NCBI GenBank assembly: GCA_913043225.1
Contig: CAJWLU010000037.1
Coordinates: 1-21,854 of the forward strand
Length of the DNA stretch: 21,854 bases
Direction: 5' to 3'
Origin: an uncultured Acidobacteriota bacterium
GTDB taxonomy: Bacteria; Acidobacteriota; Vicinamibacteria; Vicinamibacterales; UBA8438
The position numbers and the translations under genes are program-made. Of the stretch, positions 1 through 17,797 are shown one piece after another. Within the stretch, counting starts at the first letter, position 1. Each line of letters begins with the position of its first letter. The notes under the pieces were generated by a model. The model did not search any database. It had not been told where the DNA came from and saw only the letters and a program-made list of their open reading frames with translations.

Positions 1-88
1 TTTCCCGTCTCCCCTATCTCTCCCCCGCGGGATCCGGGATTCCTCGTTCGAGGAGGCCAATCGCCCCCTCCAACGCCGCAGGACTCAC
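1..88 (-). pseudogene. C-terminal remnant of a tyrosine integrase related to the intact integrase at 16682-17791
   Basis: The minus strand from 88 reads VSPAALEGAIGLLERGIPDPAGER*, versus LSPAEMERAIRLLDAPPPGQSHGDILET in the intact integrase (8/13 identical over SPA..LLE/D). DNA aatcgccccctccaacgccgcaggactca vs aatcgcccgctccatctctgccggactca. The distance from the arm motif to ggactca is 74 vs 75 bp. Confidence 0.75.
6..24. repeat. Putative integrase arm-type site, variant C (CGTCTCCCCTATCTCTCCC)
   Basis: Exact 19-bp match to 16475-16493. Same position relative to the integrase C-terminus as the 16695 motif. Confidence 0.7.
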
Positions 89-105
89 GATGTCAAAGGC
101 GTGCG

Positions 106-2607
106 TCACCGGCTTCTGAACAGATCGGTGCCGACCACCCGGTGGATCATCGTCCGGAGGGGGTACCCGTCGCTCCGCCCCTGGTCGACGATCTGCTCAA
201 TGCTGTCGCGGTCCGCGAACTCGGCCTCCGCACCGGTCGCAAAGACGACCAGGCTCGTGGCCAGGTGACGCGCCACCTGGTCGAGCTCCTGTGCGAGCAA
301 CAGCTGCTTGTACTCTTCCAGCCCGGCGAACGGGTCGCCCGCAGGCGTGACGCCGGCCGAGTCCACGGCGGGCCCCTGGCTGTACCGGACCTCCCAACGC
401 TCCTTCTCGGCGTCGACCACGCGATAACGGGAGCGAAAGCCGCCGATCGGGTCAAACGACTCCATGGCGAACCCCGGCGGGTCGATGCTGCGGTGACAAC
501 TCGCGCACACCGGGCTGTTCCGATGGGCGTCGAGCTGCTCTCGGATCGTCGTGGTGCCACGTGTGTCCGGTTCGGGGATGTCGACCGCAGCCGGGGGTGG
601 CGGCGCCGGTGTTCCCAAGAGGTTGGCCAGGACGAAGTTGCCACGCGGAATCGGCGACGTCGTGGTGCCGTTGGCCGTGATCTTGTGCACGCTCGCCTGG
701 GTCAGCAGCCCACCCCGAGGGCTCTCGGCGGGCAGCCGCACCTTCCGCATCTGCTGCCCCCTGATGCCCTCCATGCCGTAGTGCTCCGCCAGACGCCGGT
801 TCACGAACGTGAAGTCGGCGTCGATGAGCGCATCCACACCAAGGTCGCTGGCGATCAGCTCCGAGAAGAAGAGTTCGGTCTCCGCCGCCATCGCCTGACC
901 GAGCAGGTCGTCATACTCGGGATACAGCCCAGGGTCGGGAGTGGTGGCCCGCAGCTCGTAGAGCCGGAACGCCTGGCCCACGAAGTCCTTCACGAACCGC
1001 GCGGCCTTCGGGTCGTCCAGCATCCGATCGACCTGCTCGACCAGCACCGCTGGATCGGAGAGCCGGCCCGCCCGGGCCACCTCGGCCAGTTCCGCATCGG
1101 GCTGACTGCGCCACAAGAAGTACGACAGCCGCGTGGCCAGGCCGTGGTCGCTCAGCTGACGAGTCGTTCCCGCGTCATCGGCGTGGTAGATGAATGGAGG
1201 GGCGCTCAGGATGGCACGCAGCGGCACCCGAAGGGCCTCGATGAAGGGGCGCCCGCCGGCCAGCAGCGGCGCGGCCAAGCTGGCGTAGGCCTCCACCTCG
1301 TCGTCGGCCACCGGCCGGCGGAAGGCGCGGGGCGCGAACCGCGCCACGATGTCGACGATGTGCTCGTAGGGCTCCTTCGTGAGCTGGACCCCTCCATCAA
1401 CGTCGAACGCCACGCCGGTCAGGAGCTGTTGTGTGGTCGGTGGCGGCCAGGCGTCGAGCAGAGGCCCCTCGATGGTCATCGTTCTGAGCGCGACACCCTC
1501 GCCCTCGTAGTCCCTGAAGTTCCCCCGCGGCCCGTAGTAGTCCGTCCTCACCACGCCCGGGGGCACGGCGGCATCGGCCGCAGCCGGGCTGATCACATCG
1601 CCCGGGCGAAGGAATGCCGTGAGCTCGACCGTCCGCGGCTGGTCAGCGACCAGGTCGAACGAGCCGATGAGATTGTCGAGCGCGACCGCTCCGAGGCCGC
1701 GCGCCTTGTAGACGGTCAGCGTGACCGGCGTCTCGGCCTGGTAGGCGTAGGCGTCGATCGTGACGCGATACCGCCCCGGATAGGGGACCGCGAAGCCCTC
1801 GGACCGGCTGTGGAGCAGATAGGTTGAGCTGGTCACGTGGAAGGTCGCGAAACCGTCGTCCACCCGCTTGGTGGCGCCACACCCAAGACAGTCGCCGTCC
1901 GCGTTCCGAGCGAGCAGGCCCGACTTCACGTACTCGATCGTGAACGGCTCGACCGGCGGCGGCGGTCCGGTCTCGATGGCGGCATCGAGCGCCCGATCCG
2001 CAGCGGCCAGATAGGCGTTGACATGGAGCGGCGACAGGCTCTGGTTCGCCGCCACGGTGTCGAATCCGCCCGAGTCGGCTTCGGCCGGCAGCGTGCGGCT
2101 CAGATCGCTGGCAATGGCTTCGTCGATTCCCAGCAGATCCTGCAGGGTATAGGCGTACTCCAGCCGGGTGAGCCGTCGCAGCGAAGCACGCTGCTCGCCG
2201 CGCGCGACCCGGTTCGCCTCGACCAGCGCACGCTTCAGTGACCCGAGCGCCGTCTCGACCACCGTGTCGTCGGGTTGCGGAGCGGTCGTCGGCGGCATCT
2301 CACCCGCCTCGACCCGCTCGTACACCTTTTCCCACGCCGTGAACGTCTCGAGATCGGTGAGGTCGGACCCCAGGCGCGCGAGGTTAAGCGGAGTCACCGT
2401 CCGCTCGCCGTGGCACCGAAGACAGGACGTTTCGATGAGGGGAGCCACAGCGGTGTCCAGCGTCTGAGCCGCTGCCCCGGAAGGTGCGGCCATCGCCACG
2501 AACGCGAGAGCCACGGCGGTGCAACGGGCGTGCGAAAAGGCAACCATGGCCGGAATCGTAGGGCTCGCCCGCGCGGGTGTCAATGTAGCGCCCGATGTGA
2601 CCCCCAT
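106..2607 (-). CDS. DUF1592/DUF1588/DUF1587/DUF1595/DUF1585 domain protein with c-type heme motifs (planctomycete/acidobacterial type); true start probably near 2547
   Basis: CLRCH and CASCH heme motifs, GEMPP, LRRLTRLEY, LATRLSYFLW, GLLTQAS, TSPIPRG, IDPPGFAMESFDPIG; signal peptide. Confidence 0.9.
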   Translation of the reverse strand: MGVTSGATLTPARASPTIPAMVAFSHARCTAVALAFVAMAAPSGAAAQTLDTAVAPLIETSCLRCHGERTVTPLNLARLGSDLTDLETFTAWEKVYERVEAGEMPPTTAPQPDDTVVETALGSLKRALVEANRVARGEQRASLRRLTRLEYAYTLQDLLGIDEAIASDLSRTLPAEADSGGFDTVAANQSLSPLHVNAYLAAADRALDAAIETGPPPPVEPFTIEYVKSGLLARNADGDCLGCGATKRVDDGFATFHVTSSTYLLHSRSEGFAVPYPGRYRVTIDAYAYQAETPVTLTVYKARGLGAVALDNLIGSFDLVADQPRTVELTAFLRPGDVISPAAADAAVPPGVVRTDYYGPRGNFRDYEGEGVALRTMTIEGPLLDAWPPPTTQQLLTGVAFDVDGGVQLTKEPYEHIVDIVARFAPRAFRRPVADDEVEAYASLAAPLLAGGRPFIEALRVPLRAILSAPPFIYHADDAGTTRQLSDHGLATRLSYFLWRSQPDAELAEVARAGRLSDPAVLVEQVDRMLDDPKAARFVKDFVGQAFRLYELRATTPDPGLYPEYDDLLGQAMAAETELFFSELIASDLGVDALIDADFTFVNRRLAEHYGMEGIRGQQMRKVRLPAESPRGGLLTQASVHKITANGTTTSPIPRGNFVLANLLGTPAPPPPAAVDIPEPDTRGTTTIREQLDAHRNSPVCASCHRSIDPPGFAMESFDPIGGFRSRYRVVDAEKERWEVRYSQGPAVDSAGVTPAGDPFAGLEEYKQLLLAQELDQVARHLATSLVVFATGAEAEFADRDSIEQIVDQGRSDGYPLRTMIHRVVGTDLFRSR

Positions 2608-2864
2608 ACCGCCGTAGCCGATCTCACCGGCGAGGGATGGCAGGGTGGATAACCTTGTGCGATCCCTTCATATATGTCCACTGGCTCAAGGCAGTTTCCC
2701 GGCCCGCGCATCGGCGTAGAATGAAGCTCCTCCGCCGGGGAGGACCGACGCAACGGAGCAAGTACTCAGACGGAGCAGATCCTGGCGATCGTCAAGGCAG
2801 GCGAAGCCGGCCCGATTGCCCGTCGTATCCACTGGCCCGAGCTACGGGCAGAAGGGAAAGACCA

Positions 2865-3227
2865 ATGCGAAAGTTGTTCGTCGTGCTGGCAGCATGCGGC
2901 GTGCTCGCGGGCGCCGCCTCGTTGATGGCGCAGGATCCGCCGGCCTACTTCGTGGTCACCGTGACGGTCACCGATGAGGACGCCTACGGGGAGTACCGAG
3001 CCGGCTTCGGCGCGGTCTTCGAGCAGTTCGGTGGCCAGGTGGTGGCGGCCAGCTCGGACCCGACGATCCTCGAGGGCGCGTGGGACGCGGGGACCACGGT
3101 GCTCATCCGCTTCGACTCGCGAGCCGAGGCGCTGGCCTGGTACAACTCGGATGGCTATCAGGCCCTCATCGCCATACGGGAACGGGCCTCCACCGCGAAC
3201 TTCATCCTGATCGACGGGCGGCCCTGA
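2865..3227 (+). CDS. DUF1330 family protein with N-terminal signal peptide
   Basis: ATG at 2865 (MRKLFVVLAACGVLAG...). PAYFVV, FGG, LEGAW, LIRFDSRAEALAWYNSDGYQ..IAIR match the DUF1330 pattern. Confidence 0.85.
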   Translation: MRKLFVVLAACGVLAGAASLMAQDPPAYFVVTVTVTDEDAYGEYRAGFGAVFEQFGGQVVAASSDPTILEGAWDAGTTVLIRFDSRAEALAWYNSDGYQALIAIRERASTANFILIDGRP

Positions 3228-3275
3228 ACGCGCGGCGGTTCCCACCCTGGCGTCGAGACGTGAGCGACGCCGCTG

Positions 3276-3445
3276 TCACTGGGTGCCGCCTCCCCCTTTG
3301 AAGTGGTCGTCGGCGTCGGCGAACAGGACGTTGAAGCTCGTCAGCGAGCCGTCGCAGCCGGTGATGTAGCTCTGGAGCTTCAGCTTCACGTCGTCGGGCA
3401 GGTCCGAGGCGTTCACCTGCTGTTCGAGCGTCCGGAGCCAGACCT
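3276..3445 (-). pseudogene. C-terminal fragment of a conserved hypothetical protein
   Basis: LRTLEQQVNASDLPDDVKLKLQSYITGCDGSLTSFNVLF resembles the C-terminus of a conserved hypothetical family as recalled (LEQxIN...LQxYIT..YGSLTTFNVLF). No convincing N-terminal part. Confidence 0.5.
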
Positions 3446-3553
3446 TTAGACCGCCACGGGGCCCCGACGAGAGTCCGTCAGTTGCCGCCGTCGTCACCGG
3501 ATCCTATGATCCGGGACGATAACGAACTATCCGGATGTCGAAGGAGTTGACCC

Positions 3554-5149
<1,596 letters not shown>

Positions 5150-5170
5150 GCACGGTTCCTGGAGGCGCCC

Positions 5171-6265
5171 ATGATGTCTCGCACCGTCGCGGCGGCGAGT
5201 CTGCTTCTGGCCGTTGGTTGCACGAGCCCCCCGGCCGAGGAGCCGGCCGCCGAAGCACCGCCCACCGAGACGATGGAGCCTGCCGGAGACACCAGCCCGG
5301 TGCCCGGCGTCACCCTTCGTCACGTCGAGGCCAACGGCATCCGGATGCGGATTGCCGAGGCCGGCAGCGACGGCCCGTTGGTGCTCCTGGCGCACGACTG
5401 GCCCGAGTCCTGGTACTCGTGGCGGCATCAGCTGACGGCGCTGGCTGCGGCGGGCTACCGGGCGGTGGCCCCCGACATGCGCGGCTACGGCGACACCGAC
5501 GCGCCCCCCAACGTCGAGGACTACGACATCGAGCACCTGGCGGCCGACATGGTCGGGCTGCTCGACACGCTCGGGGAAGAGCGGGCGGTCATCGTGGGCC
5601 ACGACTGGGGCGCGCTGGTGGCCTGGAACAGCGTACTGCTGCACCCGGACCGGTTCTCCGGGCTGGTCGCGATGAGCGTGCCCTACGGCGGACGGGCGCC
5701 GCGGTCGCCACTCGAGAGCTGGCAGGAGCGGTTCGGCGAGAACTTCTACTACATCCTCTACCACCAAGAGCCTGGCGTCGCCGACGCGGAATACGACGCC
5801 GACCCGCGCGGGCTGCTGAGCCGTCTGTATCTCTCCCCAGACTCGCCGCGCGACCCACCGGAGGTGACCGATCCGCTTCGGTCCGCCGGCGGCTGGATCC
5901 CGCGCCTCGGCGCGCCGCAGGGGCTGCCCGACTGGCTCACCCAGGCCGACCTCGACTACTACGTGGCCGAGTTCGAACGGGCCGGGTTCCGGGGCGGAGT
6001 GAACTACTACCGGAACTTCCACCGCAACTGGGAGATCACCCCCCAGCTGGACGGGGTGCGGGTCGAGATGCCGACCCGGTTCATTGCCGGCTCTCGTGAC
6101 GTGGTCATCGGCGGCGCCGACCAGGCCGCGCTCACCGCGATGATGTCGCCCGTGGTGGAGGACCTGCGCGGGGTCGTGCTGGTAGAGGGGACCGGGCACT
6201 GGGTGCAGCAGGAGCGCCCGGAAGAAACCAACGAGGCACTCCTCGCGTTCCTGGACGAGCTCTAG
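5171..6265 (+). CDS. Alpha/beta hydrolase, epoxide hydrolase family, lipoprotein
   Basis: RBS ggagg; LLLAVGC lipobox; APDMRGYG, GHDWG nucleophile, FYYILY and NYYRN tyrosines, GHWVQQE histidine. Confidence 0.9.
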   Translation: MMSRTVAAASLLLAVGCTSPPAEEPAAEAPPTETMEPAGDTSPVPGVTLRHVEANGIRMRIAEAGSDGPLVLLAHDWPESWYSWRHQLTALAAAGYRAVAPDMRGYGDTDAPPNVEDYDIEHLAADMVGLLDTLGEERAVIVGHDWGALVAWNSVLLHPDRFSGLVAMSVPYGGRAPRSPLESWQERFGENFYYILYHQEPGVADAEYDADPRGLLSRLYLSPDSPRDPPEVTDPLRSAGGWIPRLGAPQGLPDWLTQADLDYYVAEFERAGFRGGVNYYRNFHRNWEITPQLDGVRVEMPTRFIAGSRDVVIGGADQAALTAMMSPVVEDLRGVVLVEGTGHWVQQERPEETNEALLAFLDEL

Positions 6266-6339
6266 TCGGTCCCCTCGCCTGTTCCGCCCCTCCGGGCAAC
6301 CCCCCTTGCCGTCGCGTCGTCCATAACTAACGACCGACG

Positions 6340-6582
6340 ATGCAAACTCTCTGGCAGGACATCCGCTGCGCGCTGCGGGGCCTGGGACGCGCGCCCGGGT
6401 TTGCCGCCGTCGCCATCCTGACCCTGGCGCTCGGCATCGGCGCCAACACGGCGATCTTCAGCGCGGTCAATCCGCTGCTGTTCCAGCCACTGGCGTTCGA
6501 GACACCCGACCGCCTGGTCTGGATCGCCAACAGCGGCGAGGGCGGGCTGTCGGCGGTCGACGGCCGCTTCGACCCGATGTAG
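6340..6582 (+). pseudogene. Truncated N-terminus of an ABC transporter permease (ADOP/MacB-FtsX type)
   Basis: MQTLWQDIRCALRGLGRAPGFAAVAILTLALGIGANTAIFSAVN..LLFQPL..PDRLV is the typical start of about 800-aa permeases; it stops after 80 aa. Confidence 0.85.
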
Positions 6583-6592
6583 GTCGTATCGC

Positions 6593-8569
6593 TCAGGGCA
6601 GCGCCAGCGCCATCAGCTGCGGCACCTGCCCCCCGACCGTCAGCGCGATGTATTGCCGACCCTCGTGCAGATAGGTCATCGGGGTGCCGATGGCGCCGGA
6701 CGGAAGATCGACCGAGCCCACGATCTCCCCAGTAGCCTTGTTCCGGGCAATCAGACGGGGCCCACCGTCAGATCCGCCGGCGGTCAGGGCGCTCACCAGG
6801 AGCGTACCGGTCACGACCGGGCCTCCACGCCCGTCGCCGCCGAGCGGCGGCAGGTCCAGGTCGCGCAGCATCGGGTGGTTCCGCAGCCGGTCGCCATCGC
6901 CGTTGGGCTGCATCCAGGCATGCTCGCCCCGGTTGAGATCGATCGCGGTCATGCGGGAGTAGGGCGGCTTGAAGAGCGGGAGCCCCTGCGGCAACGCGGG
7001 CTGGGTGCCACTGCCGAACTCGCTCTGGGTGAACCGTAGGTTGCCGCCCTCGGACGGGTCGGGGGTGTAGTACTTCAACACCGAGAAGCTGTTGGACGAC
7101 GGGACATACAGCATGCCCGTCTCCGGGTCGACCGCCGAGCCGCCCCAGGTCGCGGCGCCGCCGATCTGCGGCCGCTGAATCGTGCCCTGCAGCCCGCCAT
7201 CGATGCTGAGCATGGGCGGCGTGAAGAGCGGCCCGAGCCGGAAGTTCTCCACCGCCTCCACCGCCATGGCCCGGATCTCGGGGGTGAAGTCGATCAGATC
7301 GTCGATGCTCACGCCCTGGTAGTCGAACGGCGGCGGCTTGGTCGGAAACGGCTGCGTGGGTGACAGCACCTCGCCTTCGAGGTCGGTGTCGGTCTCGACC
7401 GCGCGTTCCTCGATCGGCCAGACGGGGTCCCCGGTCACCCGGTCGAAGACATACGTGAACGCCTGCTTGCTGACCTGGGCGATGGCGGGAATCTGACGGC
7501 CGTCCACCCGGATGTCGACCAGGCTCGGCGCGGCCGGAAAGTCATAGTCCCACACCCCGTGGTGCACCGCCTGGAAGTGCCACATCCGCTGGCCGGTGAG
7601 CCCGTCGACGGCGACCAGGCTCTCGGCGAACAGGTTGTCCCCCAGCCGGTGGCCGCCGTAGTAGTCGCTGGTCGGCGTGCCAGTGGGAAGGAACACGTAG
7701 CCGGTCTCGTCGTCGGCCGCCATCGGGGGCCAGACGTTGACGTTTCCCGAGTACCGCCACGACTCGTTCTCCCAGGTGTCGGCCCCGTAGTCGTCACCGC
7801 TCGGCACGGTGCGGAAGGTCCAGCGGGTGTCGCCAGTGCGCGCGTCGACCCCCTTGATCCAGCCGGGCGGCGCCTCCTTCTTGATGACGAAGTCCGAGAT
7901 GATGGTCGGGGTGACGACGATGTCGCCGACCACGACCGGCGGCGACTTCACGCCGAGCAGCACCCGGCCCTGGTAGTTGGTGTCGTCCCGCGAGGCGCGG
8001 GGGATCCCTTCGGTCAGGTCGACCCGTCCGCCGTCGCCGAACCCTGCCACCGGCTCCCCGGTCGCGGCATCGACCGCGTGCAGGTAGCCTTCGCTGGTGC
8101 CCCAGAAGATCCGCGCCTCGTCGTCGTCCGACCAGTATGCGAGACCCCGCGAGCCATACCCGTGCGTGGGATTGCCGCCACGGTAGACCTCGGGGTCATA
8201 CACCCAGAGGGTCTCCCCGGTCCCAGCATCGATCGCCGCCACCTGATACATGGCGGTGGAGATGTAGAGCACGCCGTCCATCATGAGCGGCGTCGCCTGG
8301 AACCCTCGGATCGAGACGCCCTGCCGCTCGGCCCGGAGCGGCTCCAGGTCCAGGGCTCCGTCCGTCGATTCCCAGCGCCAGGCGACCTGCAAGTCGTCGA
8401 AGTTTCCGGCGTCGATCTGATCGAGCGGCGAGTACTTCGTCCCACCGTTGTCGCCACCGTAGTGACGCCACTCGCCGTCGACGGCGCCCTGCTGCGCCAC
8501 GGCCGGAGCGGACGTCAGCGCGGCCCAGCACACCGCGCTGATGATGCCGGGAATCGGGTAGCGTCGCAT
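6593..8569 (-). CDS. PQQ-dependent dehydrogenase, quinoprotein glucose dehydrogenase-like
   Basis: Start MRRYPIPG after RBS ggagg; EWRHYGGD..TKYSPLDQI, FQATPLM, WHFQAVHHGVWDYDFP, SPTQPFPTKP, GTPMTY. Confidence 0.9.
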   Translation of the reverse strand: MRRYPIPGIISAVCWAALTSAPAVAQQGAVDGEWRHYGGDNGGTKYSPLDQIDAGNFDDLQVAWRWESTDGALDLEPLRAERQGVSIRGFQATPLMMDGVLYISTAMYQVAAIDAGTGETLWVYDPEVYRGGNPTHGYGSRGLAYWSDDDEARIFWGTSEGYLHAVDAATGEPVAGFGDGGRVDLTEGIPRASRDDTNYQGRVLLGVKSPPVVVGDIVVTPTIISDFVIKKEAPPGWIKGVDARTGDTRWTFRTVPSGDDYGADTWENESWRYSGNVNVWPPMAADDETGYVFLPTGTPTSDYYGGHRLGDNLFAESLVAVDGLTGQRMWHFQAVHHGVWDYDFPAAPSLVDIRVDGRQIPAIAQVSKQAFTYVFDRVTGDPVWPIEERAVETDTDLEGEVLSPTQPFPTKPPPFDYQGVSIDDLIDFTPEIRAMAVEAVENFRLGPLFTPPMLSIDGGLQGTIQRPQIGGAATWGGSAVDPETGMLYVPSSNSFSVLKYYTPDPSEGGNLRFTQSEFGSGTQPALPQGLPLFKPPYSRMTAIDLNRGEHAWMQPNGDGDRLRNHPMLRDLDLPPLGGDGRGGPVVTGTLLVSALTAGGSDGGPRLIARNKATGEIVGSVDLPSGAIGTPMTYLHEGRQYIALTVGGQVPQLMALALP

Positions 8570-8618
8570 CGCGTCCTCCGTCGAGCTACGTGCCTGTCCG
8601 ATGGTCGAGAGTGCCCCG

Positions 8619-8624
8619 ATTATA
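8619..8624 (-). promoter_or_regulatory. Possible sigma70 -10 box (TATAAT) for the PQQ dehydrogenase
   Basis: Perfect TATAAT on the minus strand about 50 nt upstream of ATG 8569; no canonical -35. Confidence 0.4.
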
Positions 8625-9357: not shown

Positions 9358-9547
9358 GTGTTACTCCCCCATTGGTATCAAAAAACGGTGCGTTAAGCGG
9401 TCGTGACCGCGCCTGCACCGACACACCAGCCGCCAGCGCGACCAGGACGGCGACGGCTGCAACGAACCGGACGGCGGGCGTCATCGAGCTACCTCGGTTC
9501 CGACAATGCTATTGAGACGTCGATCCTACCGCTGGCCGGGAGGTGGT

Positions 9548-9868
9548 TCAATGGGAACGGGATTCCGGTGAGTCAGTCATATGCTGGAGCTTGGCCCGTA
9601 AAGTGTGGCGGGCCTCTTCAATCTCCGACATCGAGATCATCGGCTCGGTGCTGGTCGTCTCACGGGGTTTGCCGTAGGCGTACGCCAGCAGCACCGTCAT
9701 GACCGACGGATGCAATTTCCCGGCCCGCGCATCGGCGAGGAAGCGCGCTTGAACCTGTGGGTCTTCGACAAGTTCCGTAGCCCACTCACGGACCCCGGCA
9801 CTGGCCTTATTGCGTGCACCTTTGGGTCGACCGCGTGGGTTCCCTGATTCGCCCGGTCTAAATGGCAC
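9548..9868 (-). CDS. DUF5681 family protein (phage-type, often terminase-small-subunit-like); GTG start at 9868 inferred
   Basis: (V/M)PFRPGESGNPRGRPKGARNK N-terminal signature and AYGKP motif. Confidence 0.75.
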   Translation of the reverse strand: MPFRPGESGNPRGRPKGARNKASAGVREWATELVEDPQVQARFLADARAGKLHPSVMTVLLAYAYGKPRETTSTEPMISMSEIEEARHTLRAKLQHMTDSPESRSH

Positions 9869-9977
9869 TGTTGCGTAGCTGTTCTTTACAGGAAAGACCA
9901 AAACTCTTGCGGCTGTCGTACGTTGCGATCGTGCGTGGTCGTTCCCAGAGACGGGTGCCGCTCGCGTGCGGGCCCAG

Positions 9978-10001
9978 CAATTTGAACATGTGTTCAAATT
10001 G
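9978..10001. promoter_or_regulatory. Palindromic operator-like site CAATTTGAACA-TG-TGTTCAAATTG
   Basis: 11-bp perfect inverted arms; a second copy (20/21 identical) lies at 18128-18148. Confidence 0.6.
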
Positions 10002-10084
10002 GGTCGAAAACCCAACAGATACAGGCTTAGGGCATTCTGTGAATTCGTGTTTCCCTACACTCCGGTTGGTTCATAGCACGACGA

Positions 10085-10167
10085 CCGTCTCCCCTCTTTC
10101 TCCCCGAGTGGTGACGGCACGCCAGGCGACTTCAGGAATCGACAACCGTCTCCAGAATGTCTCCATG
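10085..10167. repeat. Two putative arm-type sites (variant C-like at 10087, variant A at 10148), 61 bp apart
   Basis: GTCTCCCCTCTTTCTCCC and GTCTCCAGAATGTCTCCATG; the latter is identical to the copies at 13240 and 16695. Confidence 0.65.
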
Positions 10168-10200
10168 GGGGCACGTTGTCTTACGCACGAGCAAGGCGGC

Positions 10201-12939
10201 TCAAGGGGTGGGAATACGTTGTTCAAGTTCTTCAAACCATTCAAGAACGACAGTGACCTGAGGGCCAGAACCACTTTCGTCCATCAACCGATCTGGCTTC
10301 AACATGACAAAGCGCATCCCATCAGGCGAGACATCGTAGTTGGGAACCCCCCCGATCCCACCGGCACTATTGTCAAGATCGTACCTTCCCGAAAACAATA
10401 CTTCCGGAGCAGTTGCACGGAGCACTTCGGACGAAGGTTCGACGGAAACGACCATCAACTGGTCTTCATCTCGATAGAACAGTTCTTGCCCGTCCTTAGA
10501 CCAAACGGGCTCTTTTCCCCCCTCGACAGATATGGCGTACTCTTGGGGTCCCGTAGTTGGATAAGGTCGTACGTAAACCTCGTCTTCCCCAGATTTATCT
10601 GAGACGTAGGCAAACCAGCGTCCGTTTGGAGAAAATGCCGGAGCACGATCTTGAAACGGCGTAGCGACCAGTGGTTCAGGTGCAGATACTCCCTCTAAAG
10701 GTAGAACCCAGATATCTCGAAATGATTCCGGGTGGTTTTCATAGAAGCCCAACGCTCGCCCATCAGATGTCCAGGTTGTTGGATACTGAATACCTGGTCT
10801 GTCGAGCAGTAACTCAGACTGACCTCCGCCATCGGCTCTAGTCACTCTTAAAGTATTCTGGAGTGTAATCCCGTCGGCGAAAGCTACCTGTTCGCCACCC
10901 GGTCCCCAGACCGGAAAAAAACGATTATTACCTCCAAAAGTCACTCGATAGCGAGAACCACGCTCTAGATCTAACATCCAGATATCCGCGTCACTACCAA
11001 GATCGTCTACGTTCTCAGATATGACTACAGCCAAAAACTCGCCGCTAGGTGAAAGACGAGGATACACATACTGTCCTGACCGCACATTCGCACCAATGGG
11101 CTCTTCACTTCCCTGCCTGTCGACCCAGACCAGCGAGCGTGACAATCCACTAACGTCGCCACTCTGGTAGACCAACCGACCCGCATCAGAAATCGTGAAA
11201 TTCGCCGCTCCTACAGCTTTCACCGACACTCCCTCCAGCAACGGGACCGGATTTCCTTCGATCTTCCGTTCAGTCTGATCGAAACGGACTCCGAAGATCG
11301 CGCCACCTTCCACTGCGTAGATCAAATGCCCTGTTGCAACGTAGCGTGGATTCAACCCTGCAAGATTGAGCCGCGTCACTTCGCGCGTGCTTAGATCAAG
11401 TACTGCAAGTTGTCCATTCGCCTCTACTGGTGTTCCGGTCGCAATGACGAACACCACAGCTCTACCGTCTGGCAAAATAGACGGCCAATAGTGGCCCACT
11501 TCGCCATTGTCGGTATCTACTACTGTCAATGCTTCCGGTTCGCCACCGCCGGCTGGCACTTGAAACAAACCACCTCCAGCGGTACCCACAATGATCTCGT
11601 CATTAGGGCCCCAGCTACCACCGCGCACCGGAGACGGCAAACTAGCAATCGTCGCAGGAGGCCCCCCAGAGATCGATACCCTCTGCAGCGGATTGCCTCC
11701 ACTTGCACTTACGAAAGCAACCCATTCACCATCAGGTGAAATAAATGCACCAGCGGCACCATCTGTACCACGTAACAGTAGGCTTTCTAGCTCATTGACC
11801 TCACGAATATAAAGCCCCATATCCCCTGTATACACGACCCGCGCGCCGTCTGGAGAAATGGCGAGATCCGGTTGCTGTGCTGTCACAGGAACAAATTCAG
11901 GCGCTTCGATAGTGAATCGCATTATTTCTGGAGTCTGCTCTGAACTAGGTCGAAACATCGAAGTTGAAAAGCCAGCGGCGATTCCGACGAATAACATCGC
12001 CAACGCCAGCGGGAGCGGCCGCTGCCAAAAGGGCCGCGTCGTCCCGGACTCAACTTCTAGCGCCCCCTCAACCTCCGTCTCGAACGCCCCCCTCATGGCG
12101 AGTCGCACATCACCGATGTCGCGCATCCGCTCGCGCGGCTCTTTCGCCAAACAACGGCGCAATAAGCTGCCGAGGTTTCGCGGCAAGTCGTTCGGTAGTT
12201 TTTCCCACGTCGGCTCCTGCATCATCACGGCAGCCAACGTCTCCGACCCCGTCTCGCCACTAAATAGACGCTGTCCCGTCAAGACCTCGAACAAGACAAC
12301 CCCGAACGCCCAAATGTCCGCCCGTTTATCGACAGGCTTACCCTTAGCTTGCTCTGGGGCCATGTACGCTGCGGTTCCGATCACCATCCCCTGCTGCGTC
12401 GCCGATGTCGTCAACGACGTCCTGGCCGACGTCGTCGCACCCTCGCCGCTGCTATCAGACGCAACCGCCTTCGCCAGACCGAAATCCAGCACCTTCACCG
12501 TACCGTCGGTCTTCACCTTCACGTTGGCCGGCTTCAGGTCGCGGTGAATAATGCCCTGCTCGTGGGCGGCCTCCAGCGCCTCGGCAATCTGCCCAGCAAT
12601 CTCTAGAGCCTCGTCAACCGGGATGGGGCCTTCCGCAATCCGATCCGCCAACGTCGGCCCATCGATCAACTCCAGCACCAACGCCTGCACGTCGTCGGCA
12701 CGCTCGAACCCGTAAATGCCACCGATGTTGGGATGGTTCAACGAGGCGAGGACTTTGGCTTCTCGTTGAAACCGAGCCAAAAGGTCCGGATCAGCAGTGA
12801 ACCCGGCGGGCAACACCTTGAGGGCCACATCGCGGTCCAGGGTGGTATCACGGGCCTGATACACCTCTCCCATCCCGCCTTCCCCAATCTTGGCGGTGAC
12901 CTCATAGATCCCGACACGTGTGCCACTCGTCAGTGCCAT
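10201..12939 (-). CDS. Ser/Thr protein kinase with C-terminal PD40/TolB-like beta-propellers
   Basis: IGEGGMGEVY, VALK, HRDLKPAN, DFG, GTAAYMAPE, DIWAFG; hydrophobic segment; repeated SPDG/SPNG propeller motifs. Confidence 0.95.
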   Translation of the reverse strand: MALTSGTRVGIYEVTAKIGEGGMGEVYQARDTTLDRDVALKVLPAGFTADPDLLARFQREAKVLASLNHPNIGGIYGFERADDVQALVLELIDGPTLADRIAEGPIPVDEALEIAGQIAEALEAAHEQGIIHRDLKPANVKVKTDGTVKVLDFGLAKAVASDSSGEGATTSARTSLTTSATQQGMVIGTAAYMAPEQAKGKPVDKRADIWAFGVVLFEVLTGQRLFSGETGSETLAAVMMQEPTWEKLPNDLPRNLGSLLRRCLAKEPRERMRDIGDVRLAMRGAFETEVEGALEVESGTTRPFWQRPLPLALAMLFVGIAAGFSTSMFRPSSEQTPEIMRFTIEAPEFVPVTAQQPDLAISPDGARVVYTGDMGLYIREVNELESLLLRGTDGAAGAFISPDGEWVAFVSASGGNPLQRVSISGGPPATIASLPSPVRGGSWGPNDEIIVGTAGGGLFQVPAGGGEPEALTVVDTDNGEVGHYWPSILPDGRAVVFVIATGTPVEANGQLAVLDLSTREVTRLNLAGLNPRYVATGHLIYAVEGGAIFGVRFDQTERKIEGNPVPLLEGVSVKAVGAANFTISDAGRLVYQSGDVSGLSRSLVWVDRQGSEEPIGANVRSGQYVYPRLSPSGEFLAVVISENVDDLGSDADIWMLDLERGSRYRVTFGGNNRFFPVWGPGGEQVAFADGITLQNTLRVTRADGGGQSELLLDRPGIQYPTTWTSDGRALGFYENHPESFRDIWVLPLEGVSAPEPLVATPFQDRAPAFSPNGRWFAYVSDKSGEDEVYVRPYPTTGPQEYAISVEGGKEPVWSKDGQELFYRDEDQLMVVSVEPSSEVLRATAPEVLFSGRYDLDNSAGGIGGVPNYDVSPDGMRFVMLKPDRLMDESGSGPQVTVVLEWFEELEQRIPTP

Positions 12940-13071
12940 CCACGCCTCCGAATTCTCAATCTAGGAACGAAAAAACGAGTATAGCGCCGTCGTCTCGGAA
13001 AACGGCGGCGATTACCAAAGGCGGAGCATGTGGATCGCTTCGATCACGCGGTATCGTGTCTAAGCCTCGGC

Positions 13072-13158
13072 CTACTCGCGAACCCCGGTGCTGGCCTTGT
13101 TACGTGCGCCCTTAGGCCAACCAAATTGATTCCCTGATTCGCCCGGTCTAAATGGCAC
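13072..13158 (-). pseudogene. Decayed second copy of the DUF5681 gene
   Basis: Aligns with 9782-9868 at offset 3290, including a 33-bp exact match (9840-9872 = 13130-13162). Reads VPFRPGESGNQFGWPKGARNKASTGVRE*, with TGG changed to TAG. Confidence 0.85.
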
Positions 13159-13238
13159 TGTTTCGAAGCTGTTCTTTACAGGCAAGGCTACGACTTTCGC
13201 CGCTGGCGTACATTTTGACCCTAACCTGAATCGACACA

Positions 13239-13260
13239 CGTCTCCAGAATGTCTCCATGA
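13239..13260. repeat. Putative arm-type site, variant A (CGTCTCCAGAATGTCTCCATGA)
   Basis: Identical to 16694-16715; internal GTCTCCA direct repeat with 11-bp period; lies 147 bp before the att core. Confidence 0.7.
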
Positions 13261-13386
13261 CGGAGGTCGATACAGAAAGACTCACGGTGACTGGCGTGGA
13301 GAGTTCGGCGAGGCTAAGTGCCGTGGATCGAACCCGTTAGAATCAGAAGTCACGCGCTATCACCAAGTTAGAGAAACGCATTAACA

Positions 13387-13412
13387 GGGTTCGACTCCCG
13401 CCGCCTCCACCA
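13387..13412 (+). repeat. att core: duplicated 3' end of tmRNA (GGGTTCGACTCCCGCCGCCTCCACCA)
   Basis: T-loop TTCGA, acceptor strand CGCCTCC-A-CCA with the Ala-type U70. The upstream half of the T-stem is incomplete, so this is a fragment. Identical to 16625-16650. Confidence 0.85.
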
Positions 13413-13513
13413 ACACGACGTCCAGCCAGAACGGTCTCGCCGTTCAACCCCGGCGTGCATTCGTCCGGAAGACCGCATTGCGCGGTCGTGCCGGAGGGCA
13501 CCCGCGCCAGGGA

Positions 13514-15373
13514 CTAGTTCCCGGGAGCCAGCGCGAACACGTAGAGGGTGCTGCCCGCCCGACGGAACCGAGCCGCCGCGTCAGCCTCGGTCTCGTCCGT
13601 GATCTGGCCGGGAGCGTTACGCTGGCTGCCGATGATGGCGACATATTGCCGGCCGTTCGGACCAAGGTAGGTGATGGGCGAGTTGCGGAAGCCGCTTCCC
13701 GTCCGGAACGTCCAGAGGACGTCCCCGTCTCGGGCGTCGAACGCGCGGACCATCCCCTGGTCGGGGCCACCCTGAAAGACCAGGTCCCCCCCGGTCGCCA
13801 TGACGGGGGCCATGTTGCGTTCGTTCCAGTCGATCCGCCAGACGGTTTCGCCCGCTACCGGATCGTTGGCCTGCAGGGCCGCGACGTGGTCCTCCCCGGG
13901 AGGACGCGGGATCTGTCCGCCACGCTCACGCAACGTGTAATCGTTACCCGGCACATACTCACCTTCGACCATCCGGAGGTAGTCGCATTCATTGGATGTC
14001 GGGGTGTAGACAAGCCCGGTGCGCGGCGAATACGCGTCGTTCTGCCAGTTCCTCGCGGCGATGCCGGGACACCAGCCCACGGCCACGTTCTCGGCATCGG
14101 GCACGTATCGTTGCCGATCCTCGAGGTCGGTGAACATGATCTTGCTGAGGTCGTACCGTGGTCGACCGGTCTCCATGTTCACACCCTGGATCAGATCGTT
14201 GTAGACGAAGCTCCAGGGCTCGAGGAGCATCTCCCCGGTCGCGCGATCGAACACGTAGAAGAAGCCGTTGCGCCCCGGGTGGACCAACGTCTCTCGGAGA
14301 CGGCCGTCAATCTCGAGGTCGACGAGAATGTTCGTACCGGGCTCGTCGATGTCCCACTGGTCCTGAGGCGTGACGTTGTAGGCCCAGATCAGCTCGCCGC
14401 TATCGGCATCGCGGGCCAGGATCGACGCACAGTAGTTGTTCCGGTAGCTGGTGAGCCCCCCGTCCTCGTCCAGTTCCACCACACCCCAGGGCCGGCGATA
14501 GTCCGGGTTCCAGGGGCCGCAGTTGGCGGTGCCGTAGTAGAACAGGTTCAACGCCGGGTCGAAGGTGAACCAGCCCCAGACCGTGCCTCCGCCGCGTCGC
14601 CAGGAGTCACCAAACCAGGTATCGAGGGCCGGGTTCTCGATACGATCGTCGGGGTAGAAGGGCGCAAAGCGGGGTCCGATGCCAACCTCGTTGTTCGGCC
14701 CCATGCTGTAGTAACGCCACCGAAGGTTGCCGCTCTCGATGTCGTAGGCGGTGACGTGGCCGCGCACGCCGCGTTCCCCACCCGCTACGCCGACGATGAC
14801 CTTGTTGTTGACGACCAGCGGCATCGCGGTCACCGTCTCGCCTGTGCTGATGTCGGCGTTCTCCGCCCGCCAGTTGACCTCGCCGGTCTCGGCGTCGAGC
14901 GAGAACACCTGTCCGTCGAGGGTGGCGAAGAAGACGCGGCCGTCGTCGTAGGCCAGACCCCGGGTCTGCGCTCCGCAGCACGCGCTCCGCAGGGTCATCT
15001 CGAAGTCGGCGAACTCCGGTCGAAACTCCCACTTGATGGCGCCCTGCCGGGTCAGATCGAGCGCGTAGACGTGATTCGGTTTCGGGGTCACGAGATACAT
15101 CGTGTCGCCAATTACGAGCGGCGAAGCCTCGAACGAATCCTGGATGCCGAGCTGCATGGTCCACGTCATCGCCAGGTTCTCGACATTGTCGACGTTGATC
15201 TGGTCCAGCGGGCTGTAGTTCCAGCCTGCATAGTTGCCATTGGGCATGACCCATTGCGAGCCGTCACTTTCCGACGCCGGCTGACCGAACGCCGGGTCGG
15301 GGGCCGGGGCGATCCACAGTAGCGAGAAGAGCGGAATCCAGCTCCAGCGAAGTCGGGTGGTCGGAAGGTTCAT
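13514..15373 (-). CDS. PQQ-dependent dehydrogenase, methanol/ethanol family (XoxF/ExaF-like motifs)
   Basis: RBS gaaggag before ATG 15373; YSPLDQIN, vicinal CC (SACCGAQTRG), GGERGVRGHVTAYD, YGTANCGPWNP, TPQDQWDIDE, GRNGFFYVFDR. Confidence 0.9.
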   Translation of the reverse strand: MNLPTTRLRWSWIPLFSLLWIAPAPDPAFGQPASESDGSQWVMPNGNYAGWNYSPLDQINVDNVENLAMTWTMQLGIQDSFEASPLVIGDTMYLVTPKPNHVYALDLTRQGAIKWEFRPEFADFEMTLRSACCGAQTRGLAYDDGRVFFATLDGQVFSLDAETGEVNWRAENADISTGETVTAMPLVVNNKVIVGVAGGERGVRGHVTAYDIESGNLRWRYYSMGPNNEVGIGPRFAPFYPDDRIENPALDTWFGDSWRRGGGTVWGWFTFDPALNLFYYGTANCGPWNPDYRRPWGVVELDEDGGLTSYRNNYCASILARDADSGELIWAYNVTPQDQWDIDEPGTNILVDLEIDGRLRETLVHPGRNGFFYVFDRATGEMLLEPWSFVYNDLIQGVNMETGRPRYDLSKIMFTDLEDRQRYVPDAENVAVGWCPGIAARNWQNDAYSPRTGLVYTPTSNECDYLRMVEGEYVPGNDYTLRERGGQIPRPPGEDHVAALQANDPVAGETVWRIDWNERNMAPVMATGGDLVFQGGPDQGMVRAFDARDGDVLWTFRTGSGFRNSPITYLGPNGRQYVAIIGSQRNAPGQITDETEADAAARFRRAGSTLYVFALAPGN

Positions 15374-15404
15374 CGCACGCTCCTTCGATTCAGTCATGCG
15401 TCGC

Positions 15405-15872
15405 TCAGTCGTCTTCGGCCTCGTGTAGCCGGTAGAACCCGACCACACGCAGGTCGACCACGATGTCCTGCTCGCCTTCGTTGTTGAAGTACCAGCCGTG
15501 AATGCCGTCGAAGGGCGCCGCCAGCGAGCCCTGTTCCCGGTCCGCCTGGTGGGAGTCATAGATCATGACCGTGCCCGGTTCCTCGCCCTGGCGGATCGTA
15601 TGGCCGTGGAACTCGGCGGTGAACTGCCCCGGCTCGACCTGGGTGGTCCACCGGTAGGTGATGGTCTCGCCGGCGTCCATCTCGAGCATGAACTCCAGAG
15701 CCTCCCCGGCGGGCACCAGAATCTGATAGTCGCCTTCGTGCAACTCGCCGGTCGTCGCGAAGAACGTCCCCTCGTCCAGGGGCGCCTCGATCCAGGGTCC
15801 TGAAGCGGTGCGGCAGCCGGCGGCAACCGCCACCATCGTCACGAACAGCGGGATGGTAAACGCAAGTCTCAC
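15405..15872 (-). CDS. Hypothetical lipoprotein, possibly metal-binding
   Basis: GTG at 15872 after aagga; lipobox AAGC; conserved-looking EFHGH and APFDGIHGWYF motifs; co-oriented 31 bp upstream of the PQQ gene. Confidence 0.75.
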   Translation of the reverse strand: MRLAFTIPLFVTMVAVAAGCRTASGPWIEAPLDEGTFFATTGELHEGDYQILVPAGEALEFMLEMDAGETITYRWTTQVEPGQFTAEFHGHTIRQGEEPGTVMIYDSHQADREQGSLAAPFDGIHGWYFNNEGEQDIVVDLRVVGFYRLHEAEDD

Positions 15873-16030
15873 GAGAGTCCTTTCGTATGGCACGGCCCCT
15901 TGTACCACAGCCTGGCGAGAGTGAGCGGCTCGAAGCACTGGTGGACCATCTGACACCCCAGTAGCGTGCGATGTCATGGCCAGTGCCGGGGCGCCTCCAA
16001 GTAGAATGCCGCGGTCAAGGAAGATCGCAG

Positions 16031-16280
16031 ATGAGCACACTTCTCCAGAGCTCGGCTAGATGCTTCGGCGTGATCGTGGCCGTCCTGGGTGTCGCCCTGT
16101 GTTGGCCACACCCAACCAGCGGGCAGTCACCTTCCGGGGTTGCGGCCGTGCATGCGCTGGCGAGTTGACCGTGCTGTTCGCTGCCCAACACCTCCACTCG
16201 CGTAGACCCTGGTCGTCGTTGCATCGACTGTAGCTCTGCCCCAGGCCAGCCGCCGCTAAGGTGCATCGGCAGTAAGTCAC
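16031..16280 (+). pseudogene. Probable decayed gene for a secreted protein
   Basis: Signal-peptide-like MSTLLQSSARCFGVIVAVLGVALCW; stop at 16168 with a protein-like continuation in another frame (ELTVLF..); TAGAAT upstream. Confidence 0.3.
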
Positions 16281-16474
16281 CGCACCCATCACTCTGTCAG
16301 TACCAGCCCGTCTCCGCTTCGTGGATGGGGTGACTTCACCTCAGCTTGATAAGCGACTCCCCCTCCCCCCACAGCTACCGCGGGCCCACTGTTGGCGTCA
16401 TCGACAACAATGCACGGGCGATGGTGCCTCGTGTGCGTCAGCGTATAAGTACAACGGGGATGCGGTCGGGGGGG

Positions 16475-16493
16475 CGTCTCCCCTATCTCTCCC
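16475..16493. repeat. Putative arm-type site, variant C
   Basis: Exact match to 6-24; lies 149 bp before the att core at 16625. Confidence 0.7.
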
Positions 16494-16624
16494 TGACTGG
16501 GGTTCACTCAGGCGTATTGCGGTGGACACCAGTGCACAGGCGACCAGCGACACGGGCACAGTGAATACGGCGAGAATCTGCGAAAGTCGTTCGCCATAAA
16601 CAAGTTATGGCTATTGTCTCGTTT

Positions 16625-16650
16625 GGGTTCGACTCCCGCCGCCTCCACCA
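16625..16650 (+). repeat. att core: duplicated 3' end of tmRNA at the junction with the integrase-bearing element
   Basis: Identical to 13387-13412; 31 bp from the integrase stop codon; AT-rich IHF-like sequences on both sides. Confidence 0.88.
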
Positions 16651-16681
16651 CTTAAGTCATTTATTTACAGCATCTTATTTC

Positions 16682-17791
16682 TCAGCTTTGCGCCGTCTCC
16701 AGAATGTCTCCATGACTTTGTCCCGGAGGCGGTGCATCCAGCAGCCGAATCGCCCGCTCCATCTCTGCCGGACTCAGGTGCATGTAGCGTTGAGTCGTGG
16801 ACAGGTCCTGGTGGCCAGCCAACTCCTGGATGGCTCGTGCCGGAGCCCCACGCATCGCCAGGTGTGAACAGAACGTGTGCCGCAGGATATGCACACCGGG
16901 GCGAACGCGCGCCCGTCGTGCAACCTGCTTCATCGTCCCCTGCACCACCTTCTGCGTGAGCGGAGCGCCGCAGCGTGTCGTCAGCACCCGCGCCCGTCGT
17001 AGATTCCGATGACGCCGCAATGCCTCGTGGAGTCGCTCAGTCAGAGGCACATGTCTTGGGCGACCACCTTTGGTCGCCGTGATGTGCCCCTTCCAGTCTG
17101 AGCGGGCCACGCTGAGCTGTCCCCGCTCCAAGTCCACGTCGCGCCACTCAAGCGCCATCATCTCGCCGCATCGCAGGCCGGCGTGGCCACCCAACAACAC
17201 GATAAGTTCAGGGACCGGGCCTAACGCGACACCGGCCGTCACCAAGCGCTCGAACTCCTCGAAGTCATGGAACGGAGCCACCGTCTTCGGCGTACGGAGT
17301 AGCCGGATCCGGCACGGCACCTGGTCGATGACATCCCACTCCACGGCAGTCTTGAGGAGCGTGTTCAGCACGGCAAGGACGTTGTTCACCGTCTTGGCGG
17401 ACTTCTTCGAGAGTCGTCCTTTGATCCGCTGGACGTCCTCGTTGGTGATGGCATCGAGCCGTTTTCGGCCAAGTGGCGGCAGTAAGTGGACGCGGAGGAT
17501 ACTCTCCGTCGCCGCGATCCCACTCGGCTTGCCCCGGTTGGCCTTGGCGTGCCCCTCGATGAACCGCCGGACAAAGTTTTGTAGCGTCGGCACCTCCTTC
17601 CGTGGGTGTGTTTGACAGGTTGGTGGATGGATGAGCCGTGCGCGCTCGCGGGCCTGTCCCCACCGGCGTGCGGCCGTTCTCGACGACATCGGCGCTCGTC
17701 GCCGTTCTCGCCACTGTGTCCCATCCGGTAGGACCATCATGATGTCCACTTCCCAACCGCCGCGTCGATACGGTCTAACGGTCACGCTCAT
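16682..17791 (-). CDS. int: Tyrosine recombinase / phage integrase
   Basis: All catalytic residues present: GLRCGE (R), TKGG (K), HILRH, LAGH, TQRY (Y); SAM-like central domain. Confidence 0.95.
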   Translation of the reverse strand: MSVTVRPYRRGGWEVDIMMVLPDGTQWRERRRAPMSSRTAARRWGQARERARLIHPPTCQTHPRKEVPTLQNFVRRFIEGHAKANRGKPSGIAATESILRVHLLPPLGRKRLDAITNEDVQRIKGRLSKKSAKTVNNVLAVLNTLLKTAVEWDVIDQVPCRIRLLRTPKTVAPFHDFEEFERLVTAGVALGPVPELIVLLGGHAGLRCGEMMALEWRDVDLERGQLSVARSDWKGHITATKGGRPRHVPLTERLHEALRRHRNLRRARVLTTRCGAPLTQKVVQGTMKQVARRARVRPGVHILRHTFCSHLAMRGAPARAIQELAGHQDLSTTQRYMHLSPAEMERAIRLLDAPPPGQSHGDILETAQS

Positions 17792-17797
17792 TGCTAC

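Follow-up and report, generated by a model that had tools for sequence, protein, structure and literature searches.

When an element integrates at a tRNA or tmRNA gene, as in tDNA islands, it regenerates the target gene from its own DNA and pushes the older 3′ fragment downstream, together with the DNA behind it. Here we describe such islands in an uncultured Acidobacteriota bacterium, where they are stacked behind ssrA, the gene of tmRNA, on a stretch of 21,854 bases (contig CAJWLU010000037.1, the whole of contig C37 and hereafter the window); it belongs to a genome bin of 55 contigs, 3.85 Mb and 64.3% GC, whose other contigs are also given C-numbers. We consider it very likely that the window holds a tandem ‘accretion’ array, in which at least three to four related ssrA-targeting elements, mostly decayed, were laid down by serial integration into the ssrA 3′ end. 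From left to right the array would consist of ssrA, unit A, core1, unit B, core2 and island C.

Several described systems resemble this locus. In the ssrA islands of Dehalococcoides, according to the parts of that report used here (PMC3146451), tandem islands lie directly downstream of a single ssrA, are bounded by ssrA or by a short direct repeat of its 3′ end, keep the integration module beside attL (the left attachment, or att, site) and carry CRISPR modules among their cargo; moreover, some of them are without an integration module and were read as cis-mobilisable or fixed (‘accretion’). All of this is alike in the window, whereas the recombinase is not: the excerpts of the same report (PMC3146451) describe a serine recombinase of ∼540 residues, DsiB, with a 20-bp repeat, while here the integrase is not of the DsiB type but a tyrosine recombinase with a 26-nt repeat and arm sites, and phylum and cargo are other ones. 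The tycheposons of Prochlorococcus, in the portions of text available for comparison (bioRxiv 10.1101/2020.12.28.424599), share several features with our locus: the host is marine, tRNA or tmRNA genes are the targets, each newcomer displaces older elements deeper into the island, degenerate integrases are scattered through the islands along with partial tRNAs, and a small integration module is combined with a replication module and cargo. The window has this layout, with an integrase gene (int), an excisionase-like protein, an AAA_25 protein, Cas3, and tandem as well as remnant copies; a preliminary description of the window, made from its letters, had likened it to a tycheposon, which was apt and makes the locus one of a known kind. 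Tycheposon membership is defined by a hallmark-gene network, whereas the likeness here is one of layout; the host here is acidobacterial, and arm sites are unmentioned in those portions of the tycheposon text (bioRxiv 10.1101/2020.12.28.424599). As far as the excerpts of PMC2951348 describe them, heterobivalent integrases of the lambda type likewise set their N-terminal domain apart from the domains for core binding and catalysis, use arm motifs that are repeated left and right of the core, and have an excisionase-like gene beside int; the P′ sites here lie inside the 3′ coding end of int and not in non-coding DNA, and the same excerpts mention that in KplE1 attL overlaps the int promoter (PMC2951348). 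From the Islander tDNA islands, as their description presents them in part (PMC4383910), the locus shows no difference in kind, since both have a tyrosine integrase, a target gene that is regenerated and, marking the island end, a displaced piece of it.

The genome's real ssrA lies on C12 (73-425, minus strand), with 185 bits against the Rfam tmRNA model and an encoded tag ADSQLALAA (ARAGORN). Window 1-34 is identical to the end of reverse-complemented C12, and these 34 nt have no other copy in the genome; because of this unique overlap position 1 of the window is placed 39 nt past the CCA end of ssrA. In a contig of the public run X1 the core is followed by CTTAA, by 33 nt resembling the C12 spacer and then by window position 1; X1 is perhaps the source sample of the genome, thus this junction is not fully independent. 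An ssrA with exactly this 3′ end, on which the preliminary description had made its reading depend, therefore stands directly before the window, as the Rfam match, the 34-nt overlap and the X1 joint all indicate, and the array has at one end an intact target gene whose 3′ part is continuous with the island. The last 26 nt of this gene, GGGTTCGACTCCCGCCGCCTCCACCA, recur at 13387-13412 (core1) and 16625-16650 (core2, the attL core for island C), both on the plus strand and both 26/26 identical to the ssrA 3′ end. These displaced ssrA ends are the distal repeats characteristic of tRNA/tmRNA islands; when up to three mismatches were allowed, the search gave 2 matches in the window and 0 in each of 100 shuffles, so the two identical cores first reported for the window are real and not chance matches.

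A second repeat, the motif CGTCTCCNNNNNNTCTCC (CGTCTCC-N6-TCTCC), is present in six copies, all on the plus strand, at 6, 10086, 10147, 13239, 16475 and 16694, against an expectation of 0.01; six copies were reached in 0 of 100 shuffles, and genome-wide the motif is found only in the window, in the C12 overlap and twice on C47. Three copies belong to variant D3 (CCGTCTCCAGAATGTCTCCATG) and three to variant D5 (CCGTCTCCCCTATCTCTCCCC), in agreement with the six copies in two variants counted previously. Their positions relative to the cores are regular: both P′ motifs of the window, which follow a core, begin 43 nt past it (ssrA to 5; 16650 to 16693), and both P motifs, which precede a core, begin ∼150 nt before it (13239 to 13387; 16475 to 16625).

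This anatomy would be explained if related small elements integrated repeatedly at the ssrA 3′ end, the displaced 26-nt cores marking the serial events. The catalytic and core-binding domains of a lambda-type integrase would act on the 26-nt core, and its N-terminal domain, of three strands plus a helix, would recognise direct repeats that come in pairs with a period of 11 nt. Of the two pairs, P′ starts 43-47 nt after the core and is written into the last codons of the integrase, and P lies ∼150 nt before the distal core; internal deletions would then have fused and truncated the older elements. Repeated integration combined with imprecise excision had been proposed for this locus before. Serial integration did leave displaced cores behind, and deletions left stubs of int, of a DUF5681 gene and of a permease gene as well as P-arm fragments. 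The order of these events and the present activity of the array are what we infer from this arrangement.

The meaning of the motif can be read from related loci. Among 153 matching stretches, 94 encode a relative of the integrase, and the best 80 of these 94 were examined. Full-length relatives are mostly 58-67% identical (36 of 43) and come mainly from Vicinamibacterales and other Acidobacteriota bins. At 64 of the 80 loci the integrase ends -30 to +200 nt from an oppositely oriented RNA gene (44 tmRNA, 9 tRNA-Asp, 3 tRNA-Met, 2 tRNA-Ser(gct) and one each of six other tRNAs), which indicates that the family integrates into tmRNA and tRNA 3′ ends with int converging on its target. In two loci the int stop codon is 106 and 117 nt from the RNA gene, in the others 1-56 nt. 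Past the RNA gene, 53 of the 64 loci have an exact direct repeat of 6-11 nt, with a period of 11 nt, whose start lies at 43-52 nt whatever the target RNA gene; in 46 of these 53 it lies at 45-47 nt, and the remaining eleven loci have repeats of 1-5 nt; for comparison, such a direct repeat is present in 0.97% of 3200 random 40-nt windows from the same loci.

The direct repeat also encodes a peptide, G-D-I-L/V-E-T, which stands behind a linker of variable length after the last helix of the integrase; in the window the last codons of the intact int (HGDILET) contain the P′ motif D3 at 16693-16714. Codons were counted in 74 loci whose match reaches integrase residue 340 at least, 51 of which carry a G-x-x-x-E/A-T peptide. 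The glycine codon of this peptide is GGA in 40 of 51 and GGC in 11 of 51, compared with a GGA share of 143/1018 (14%) in the rest of those genes. All eleven loci with GGC-AAY (11/11) have GCA-ACG in the second half, thus the two half-sites change together, and the paired half-site classes are GGAGAC/GGAGAC, GGCAAC/GGCAAC and GGAGG/GGAGG. Judged by these sequences, codon choice at the end of int is set at the DNA level. The motif is present on the other arm too, recurring ∼150 nt before distal cores: in a clean element of 6977 bp (L022) the P motif matches the element's own P′ at 20 of 21 nt, in L053 at 17 of 18 nt, the first element of the genome G007 has the D5-like variant on both arms, and L075 has further copies before and after the distal core. 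An alignment of nine P arms, taken from six genomes, keeps the motif in register across ∼170 nt and shows two more conserved blocks, GACyGGGGTCGA and CCAGAAGTC...GCCATCA.CAAGTTA. Repeats on both the P and the P′ arm, distinct from the core, are a mark of lambda-type integrases, and they are present here.

At its start, the integrase of the window (16682-17791, minus strand) appears equally lambda-like. R207 is invariant among 25 sequences and H301, R304 and Y336 are at least 90% conserved; we read R207, H301-x-x-R304 and Y336 as the putative catalytic residues. An AlphaFold model (mean predicted local distance difference test score, pLDDT, 79.8) has strands at 3-7, 13-20 and 26-33 and a helix at 38-54 in the N-terminus, with pLDDT 82-89, and a tail at 353-369, carrying the peptide, with pLDDT below 50. 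When full-length lambda Int is compared with the model, the alignment covers residues 3-350 (Z 19.1, 320 residues aligned); with lambda Int 75-356 it begins at model residue 68, and with arm-less recombinases at about residue 65; a separate, lambda-Int-like N-terminal domain is thus predicted. No Pfam arm-binding family matched this domain at E up to 10, and sequence matches of the integrase in the PDB do not begin before residue 106. The motif class covaries with residue 14 in predicted strand 2: all 5 integrases of the GGCAAC class (5 of 5) have Q or M there, and the others (38 of 38) have E. In its position, its codons, its second arm copy and this covariation the motif behaves as an arm-type site, which the earlier term ‘arm-like’ had anticipated; it is very probably one, and the N-terminal domain would be the part that binds it. 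Some observations weigh on the other side: a match between P′ and P was not found in L064, L082 and the genome G003, the motifs of L072 are related but unequal, the loci are kin, so that counts such as 53 of 64 are not counts of independent events, and the GGCAAC class may be one or two clades. A separate locus, L132 on C31 (22357-22610), has a tRNA-Ser(gct) gene, a D5-like motif at 44 nt and 130 nt of P-arm homology with no integrase; it could be an element that collapsed between its two arm motifs.

Unit A spans ∼13.45 kb from ssrA to core1 and has kept both arms. Its P′ motif, of variant D5 (GTCTCC-N5-CTCTCC), lies at 5-25 on the plus strand, starting 43 nt after the ssrA 3′ end. Next to it, at 38-106 on the minus strand, is a C-terminal remnant of ∼23-35 codons from an integrase of the same family as the intact one. 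In a profile search over seven selected contig stretches of the genome, this remnant was second only to the intact gene in its match to a profile made from 43 family integrases (i-Evalue 0.27 over positions 331-353), and at the nucleotide level the stretch from the ssrA 3′ end to window position 87 aligns with core2 and the int 3′ end (16625-16776) at 67% over 153 nt (E 4.6e-15). From the two matches together we conclude that an integrase stub stands directly behind ssrA, and the integrase remnant noted earlier is in this sense weak but real. The P arm of unit A (13228-13386, plus strand) carries a D3 motif starting 148 nt before core1 and is homologous to P arms in five other genomes. In the interior, two truncated beginnings of P arms, D5 at 10085-10105 and D3 at 10136-10167 (together 10085-10167, plus strand), have no core behind them; the D3 fragment shares its left flank, GAATCGACA, with the P arm of core1. 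Each of the two arm positions is accompanied by a DUF5681 gene, one identified by its domain match (9548-10015, minus strand), the other a remnant (13070-13214, minus strand) that is 80% identical to 9780-9924 within the first, so that the duplicated element-end modules of the preliminary description are indeed there. With its doubled pattern of DUF5681 plus P arm and its truncated arms, unit A looks like a fusion of two elements by a deletion at 10085-10167.

The metabolic cargo of unit A, ∼9 kb between the integrase stub and the DUF5681 gene and identified by domain matches, begins with a DUF1592/DUF1588/DUF1587/DUF1585/DUF1595 protein (106-2607, minus strand), a 91% identical copy of which stands in another context in the genome G001. 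It is followed on the plus strand by a DUF1330 protein (2637-3227, with the domain in residues 102-194 of the open reading frame, ORF), a TPR protein (3554-5149) and an alpha/beta hydrolase (5171-6265) that contains a population breakpoint at 5174. Wedged between the hydrolase and a PQQ-dependent dehydrogenase (6593-8695, minus strand) is an ORF of 80 codons (6340-6582, plus strand; TIGR03434, 2.8e-24), which is a truncated duplicated permease of the ADOP family, a name that we take to mean ‘acidobacterial duplicated orphan permease’; it matches only the first 66 of the 803 permease profile positions and is a deletion scar. An ORF without a family match (8647-9357, minus strand) opens a block of lower GC (52-61%), and a Ser/Thr protein kinase fused to PD40 beta-propeller repeats (10201-12939, minus strand) lies between the truncated arms and the DUF5681 remnant.

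Two short repeats were seen in the middle of unit A. A stretch of ∼150 nt at 9409-9560, comprising a signal-peptide start and its upstream region, is repeated at 82-89% on C9 (1735-1886 and 3124-3245) and C6 (133678-133803), where the copies precede Sel1-like repeat proteins. The same stretch is in tandem in one contig of run X5 (joint 9551 back to 9409), which could reflect paralogues or tandem copies, and an X1 contig passes at 9552 into a sequence resembling a core. The other is an inverted repeat, TTTGAACA-NN-TGTTCAAA, with only two copies in the 3.85-Mb genome, at 9981-9998 in the 5′ region of the DUF5681 gene and at 18128-18145 in or upstream of the 5′ end of the excisionase-like gene of island C; it was absent from 80 related loci and from the ssrA regions of 10 relatives. 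This palindrome may be a shared operator.

Unit B spans the 3.2 kb from core1 to core2, and a scan of the window for the motif gave no copy after core1, hence the unit is without a P′ motif. Its P arm (16456-16624, plus strand), with a D5 motif starting 150 nt before core2, has related copies on C47, on C20 (two) and on C31. The boundaries of this module are conserved in five copies, and it is homologous to P arms of other genomes, for which reasons we regard it as an arm; the idea that this ∼170-nt module is an integrase pseudogene was dropped, as the family profile gives no match to it. Cargo consists of a PQQ-dependent dehydrogenase of the methanol/ethanol family (13514-15559, minus strand; domain match) and an ORF without a family match (15405-16040, minus strand). 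ARAGORN also called a tRNA-Leu(cag) at 13721-13808 on the minus strand; the call is probably false, lying inside the dehydrogenase ORF and being absent from the Rfam scan, and a tRNA-Leu(cag) gene is called by the same program on C12 at 90799-90886. Just left of the P arm, 16282-16466 is 84% identical to C9 1485-1669.

Island C starts at core2 and carries the intact integrase previously reported, a tyrosine integrase with a Phage_integrase match of 1.5e-27, whose stop codon is 32 nt past core2; the integrase is therefore next to an att site, as in other islands. Since this gene adjoins core2 and not ssrA, later arrivals must have pushed it downstream. Upstream of it on the same strand are an excisionase-like HTH_17 protein (17798-18187; TIGR01764, 2e-9), an AAA_25 protein resembling the helicase part of primase/helicases and a candidate replication module (18215-19420; domain match), and a small HTH_17/MerR-like DNA-binding protein (19688-19891; domain match). 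An ORF without assigned function separates the latter from a Cas3 gene (20709-21854, plus strand; HD domain and start of the helicase), cargo that is cut by the contig end. When the cas3_core model was run over the genome bin, it found only the piece in the window and two unrelated helicases, hence the remainder of island C lies outside the bin. Two other contigs had been considered as the far end of the array, C20, where a fourth core is preceded by a P arm 97% identical to that of unit B, and C47, which ends in a P-arm module, a degenerate core and a P-arm fragment; both are candidates at most, with no overlap to the window and no conserved downstream flank in relatives.

Arrays of this kind are found in relatives. 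In the complete genome G007, from another genus of the family, ssrA is followed by D5-like P′ and P motifs, a core and then a second unit without P′ but with a D3-like P arm and a second core, and G003 also has one unit without P′. In G003 (L118), the ∼70 nt after ssrA (∼3353-3420) and after the distal core (∼5640-5710) are near-identical, so that in this genome the duplication of the core included its flank. On the upstream side of ssrA, synteny is kept in relatives, with 79-80% identity to G003 and G011 and ∼70% to others. Downstream, tblastx of C20 (reverse-complemented, first 10-15 kb) and of C47 against the 4-37 kb past ssrA in ten relatives gave no match, which indicates that this flank differs between genera. 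G001, the only genome of the same genus, a bin of 710 contigs and 77% completeness, has 91% identical pieces for window 92-546, 2115-2594 and 5519-6250, whose homology ends ∼10-20 nt from the gene ends, with different genes beyond. Hence gene order varies across relatives, and a fixed order without att elements, which the preliminary description had named as a refutation, is not what is seen.

Parts of the window are present in 19 public runs from 12 studies, labelled marine, seawater, plankton or plain metagenome; these labels, the ADOP fragment and the mostly acidobacterial relatives of the integrase all fit a marine acidobacterium. For a comparison of populations we used the assembled contigs of four runs from four studies at 90% likeness, a kind of data in which rare excision products cannot appear; none of the joints listed for them has the form of a circle junction or an empty site. 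In X2 and X5 taken together, mean depth is 20-28 over 1-5336 and 22-69 over 13341-16675, and 0-1.2 over 16676-20000, from which island C is missing or rare in these populations; in X1 its depth is 0.65-4.5. Holes over ∼5337-12000 in X2, X4 and X5 are taken as absence from contigs only. An X5 contig of 14,345 nt runs through 2692-5174, continues with 4116 other letters, returns to 13279-13412 (P arm plus core1) and then enters DNA that does not match 13413 onwards, and an X2 contig of 6388 nt departs from the window at the same position, 5174. Populations thus carry different blocks, and the breaks fall at or near core1 (13412) and core2 (∼16675) and at one cargo junction (5174); a comparison of this kind had been proposed earlier as a check, and the metagenome contigs do show such block differences. 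Two further joints, 13412 to 16770 and 13271 to 13387, were rejected as deletions because their short sides of 25-26 nt equal the core length, and we read them as contigs of diverged copies. An X5 joint leads from 2667 back to 82 and so brackets the DUF1592 gene, whose 91% copy in G001 is flanked on either side by other genes; a tandem paralogue, relocation of the gene or a false joint could account for it.

Accretion by serial integration, our preferred explanation, has to accommodate several facts that sit less easily with it. Protein-profile support for the 38-106 remnant is weak, and the cargo at 106-8695 has a GC content of 68-70% (genome mean 64.3%), with many paralogues of the unit A genes in the genome and ∼80% identical genes far from ssrA in related genera, so the cargo looks lineage-native and not foreign. 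The variants are unpaired in unit A, where P′ is of type D5 and P of type D3; since the half-site GTCTCC is common to both we take D3 and D5 as one specificity class, served by one integrase, and a mosaic origin of the units is the alternative. Finally, the right end of island C is outside the window, the candidate terminal att core on C20 (2 mismatches, 41 nt short of the contig end) has no overlap to link it to the window, and nor has C47. How much of the array can still move is a question of its own. Island C is probably the only unit able to integrate and excise by itself, and excision in trans could apply to unit A, with or without B, given that P′, the P arm and perfect cores are kept, a prospect of about one in three; mobilisation of decayed units by the neighbouring integrase, as the preliminary description had suggested, is plausible at most, unit B having no P′ arm. 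It is only slightly less than an even bet, on the other hand, that the array arose as described and is now a fossil, so that nothing left of core2 moves, A and B are fixed and only island C is mobile or was once. Unit B with no motif after core1, the integrase of unit A reduced to a stub and the native-looking GC and numerous paralogues of the cargo would suit such fixation; so does the presence of 1-5174 and 13341-16675, and not of island C, in all four runs, and the excerpted report on Dehalococcoides proposes the same fate for old ssrA islands (PMC3146451). This is countered by the state of the att sites, both cores still being identical to ssrA, vs 2 mismatches in the C20 copy, and unit A retaining P′ motif and P arm at the standard spacings of the family, by the X5 contig with its other DNA after core1 and its replaced cargo inside unit A, and by the palindrome found only at the DUF5681 gene and the excisionase region, which suggests common control.

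The preliminary description had also called the locus functionally reminiscent of an integron, i.e. a dedicated capture platform whose integrase recruits single genes one by one at arm or core sites. Some joints close to gene borders could speak for single-gene units: in G001 the 91% match to the DUF1592 gene breaks off ∼20 nt past the stop codon and ∼10 nt from the start, that to the hydrolase breaks off ∼13 nt before the stop, and the X5 joint from 2667 to 82 encloses the DUF1592 gene. No core or arm motif stands at those borders, though, the cargo genes point both ways and have their own intergenic regions, and a search of the window for inverted repeats found no attC-like hairpins at gene borders. 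Moreover, the integrase scores 67 bits with the integron-integrase model TIGR02249, whose cut-off is 265, and 23 with NF011946 (435), G001 is a fragmentary bin, and the many paralogues of the DUF1592 gene in the genome of the window could create false joints at 90% likeness. We therefore regard gene-by-gene capture as very improbable and do not retain the integron-like function; stacked ssrA islands are a known route for collecting accessory genes, not a new capture system. Still more remote is an artefact of assembly or binning, i.e. a chimeric contig or repeats made by the assembler. A metagenome bin of 55 contigs, an overlap of C12 and C37 of 34 nt where 55 is usual for the assembler, and the low depth of island C even in X1 could raise this suspicion. 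The repeats (21-26 nt) are shorter than the assembler's word, however, four runs, each from a different study, have contigs over most of 1-16675, and complete genomes from other genera contain homologous arrays in which arms and cores are arranged in the same way, all of which argue against an artefact.

What this analysis adds is an att-site map for the family and the location of P′ sites within the last codons of int, which we do not claim as unpublished. We tentatively outline a wider picture, more doubtful than the array itself, of a family seen mainly in Acidobacteriota bins that would keep P′ in its own last codons with the peptide as a by-product, whose half-sites would co-evolve with residue 14, and whose tycheposon-like arrays of decayed P/P′/core units, excisable in trans, would shuffle native genes such as those of PQQ dehydrogenases between strains. 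In the parts of the literature compared here mobile elements of marine Acidobacteriota are not mentioned, and no search aimed at them was made. The overlap of arm site and last codons is a constraint at the DNA level that imitates a conserved peptide, and it could mislead analyses of protein motifs. Around a core of 26 nt, the map places P′ at about +45 and P at about -150, each as a pair; it is testable in a family present in 94 stretches of public genomes, and it could help to predict att sites for integrase-based genome engineering. For the organisms themselves, the stacked-island platform for flexible genes known from Dehalococcoides and Prochlorococcus also operates in marine Acidobacteriota.

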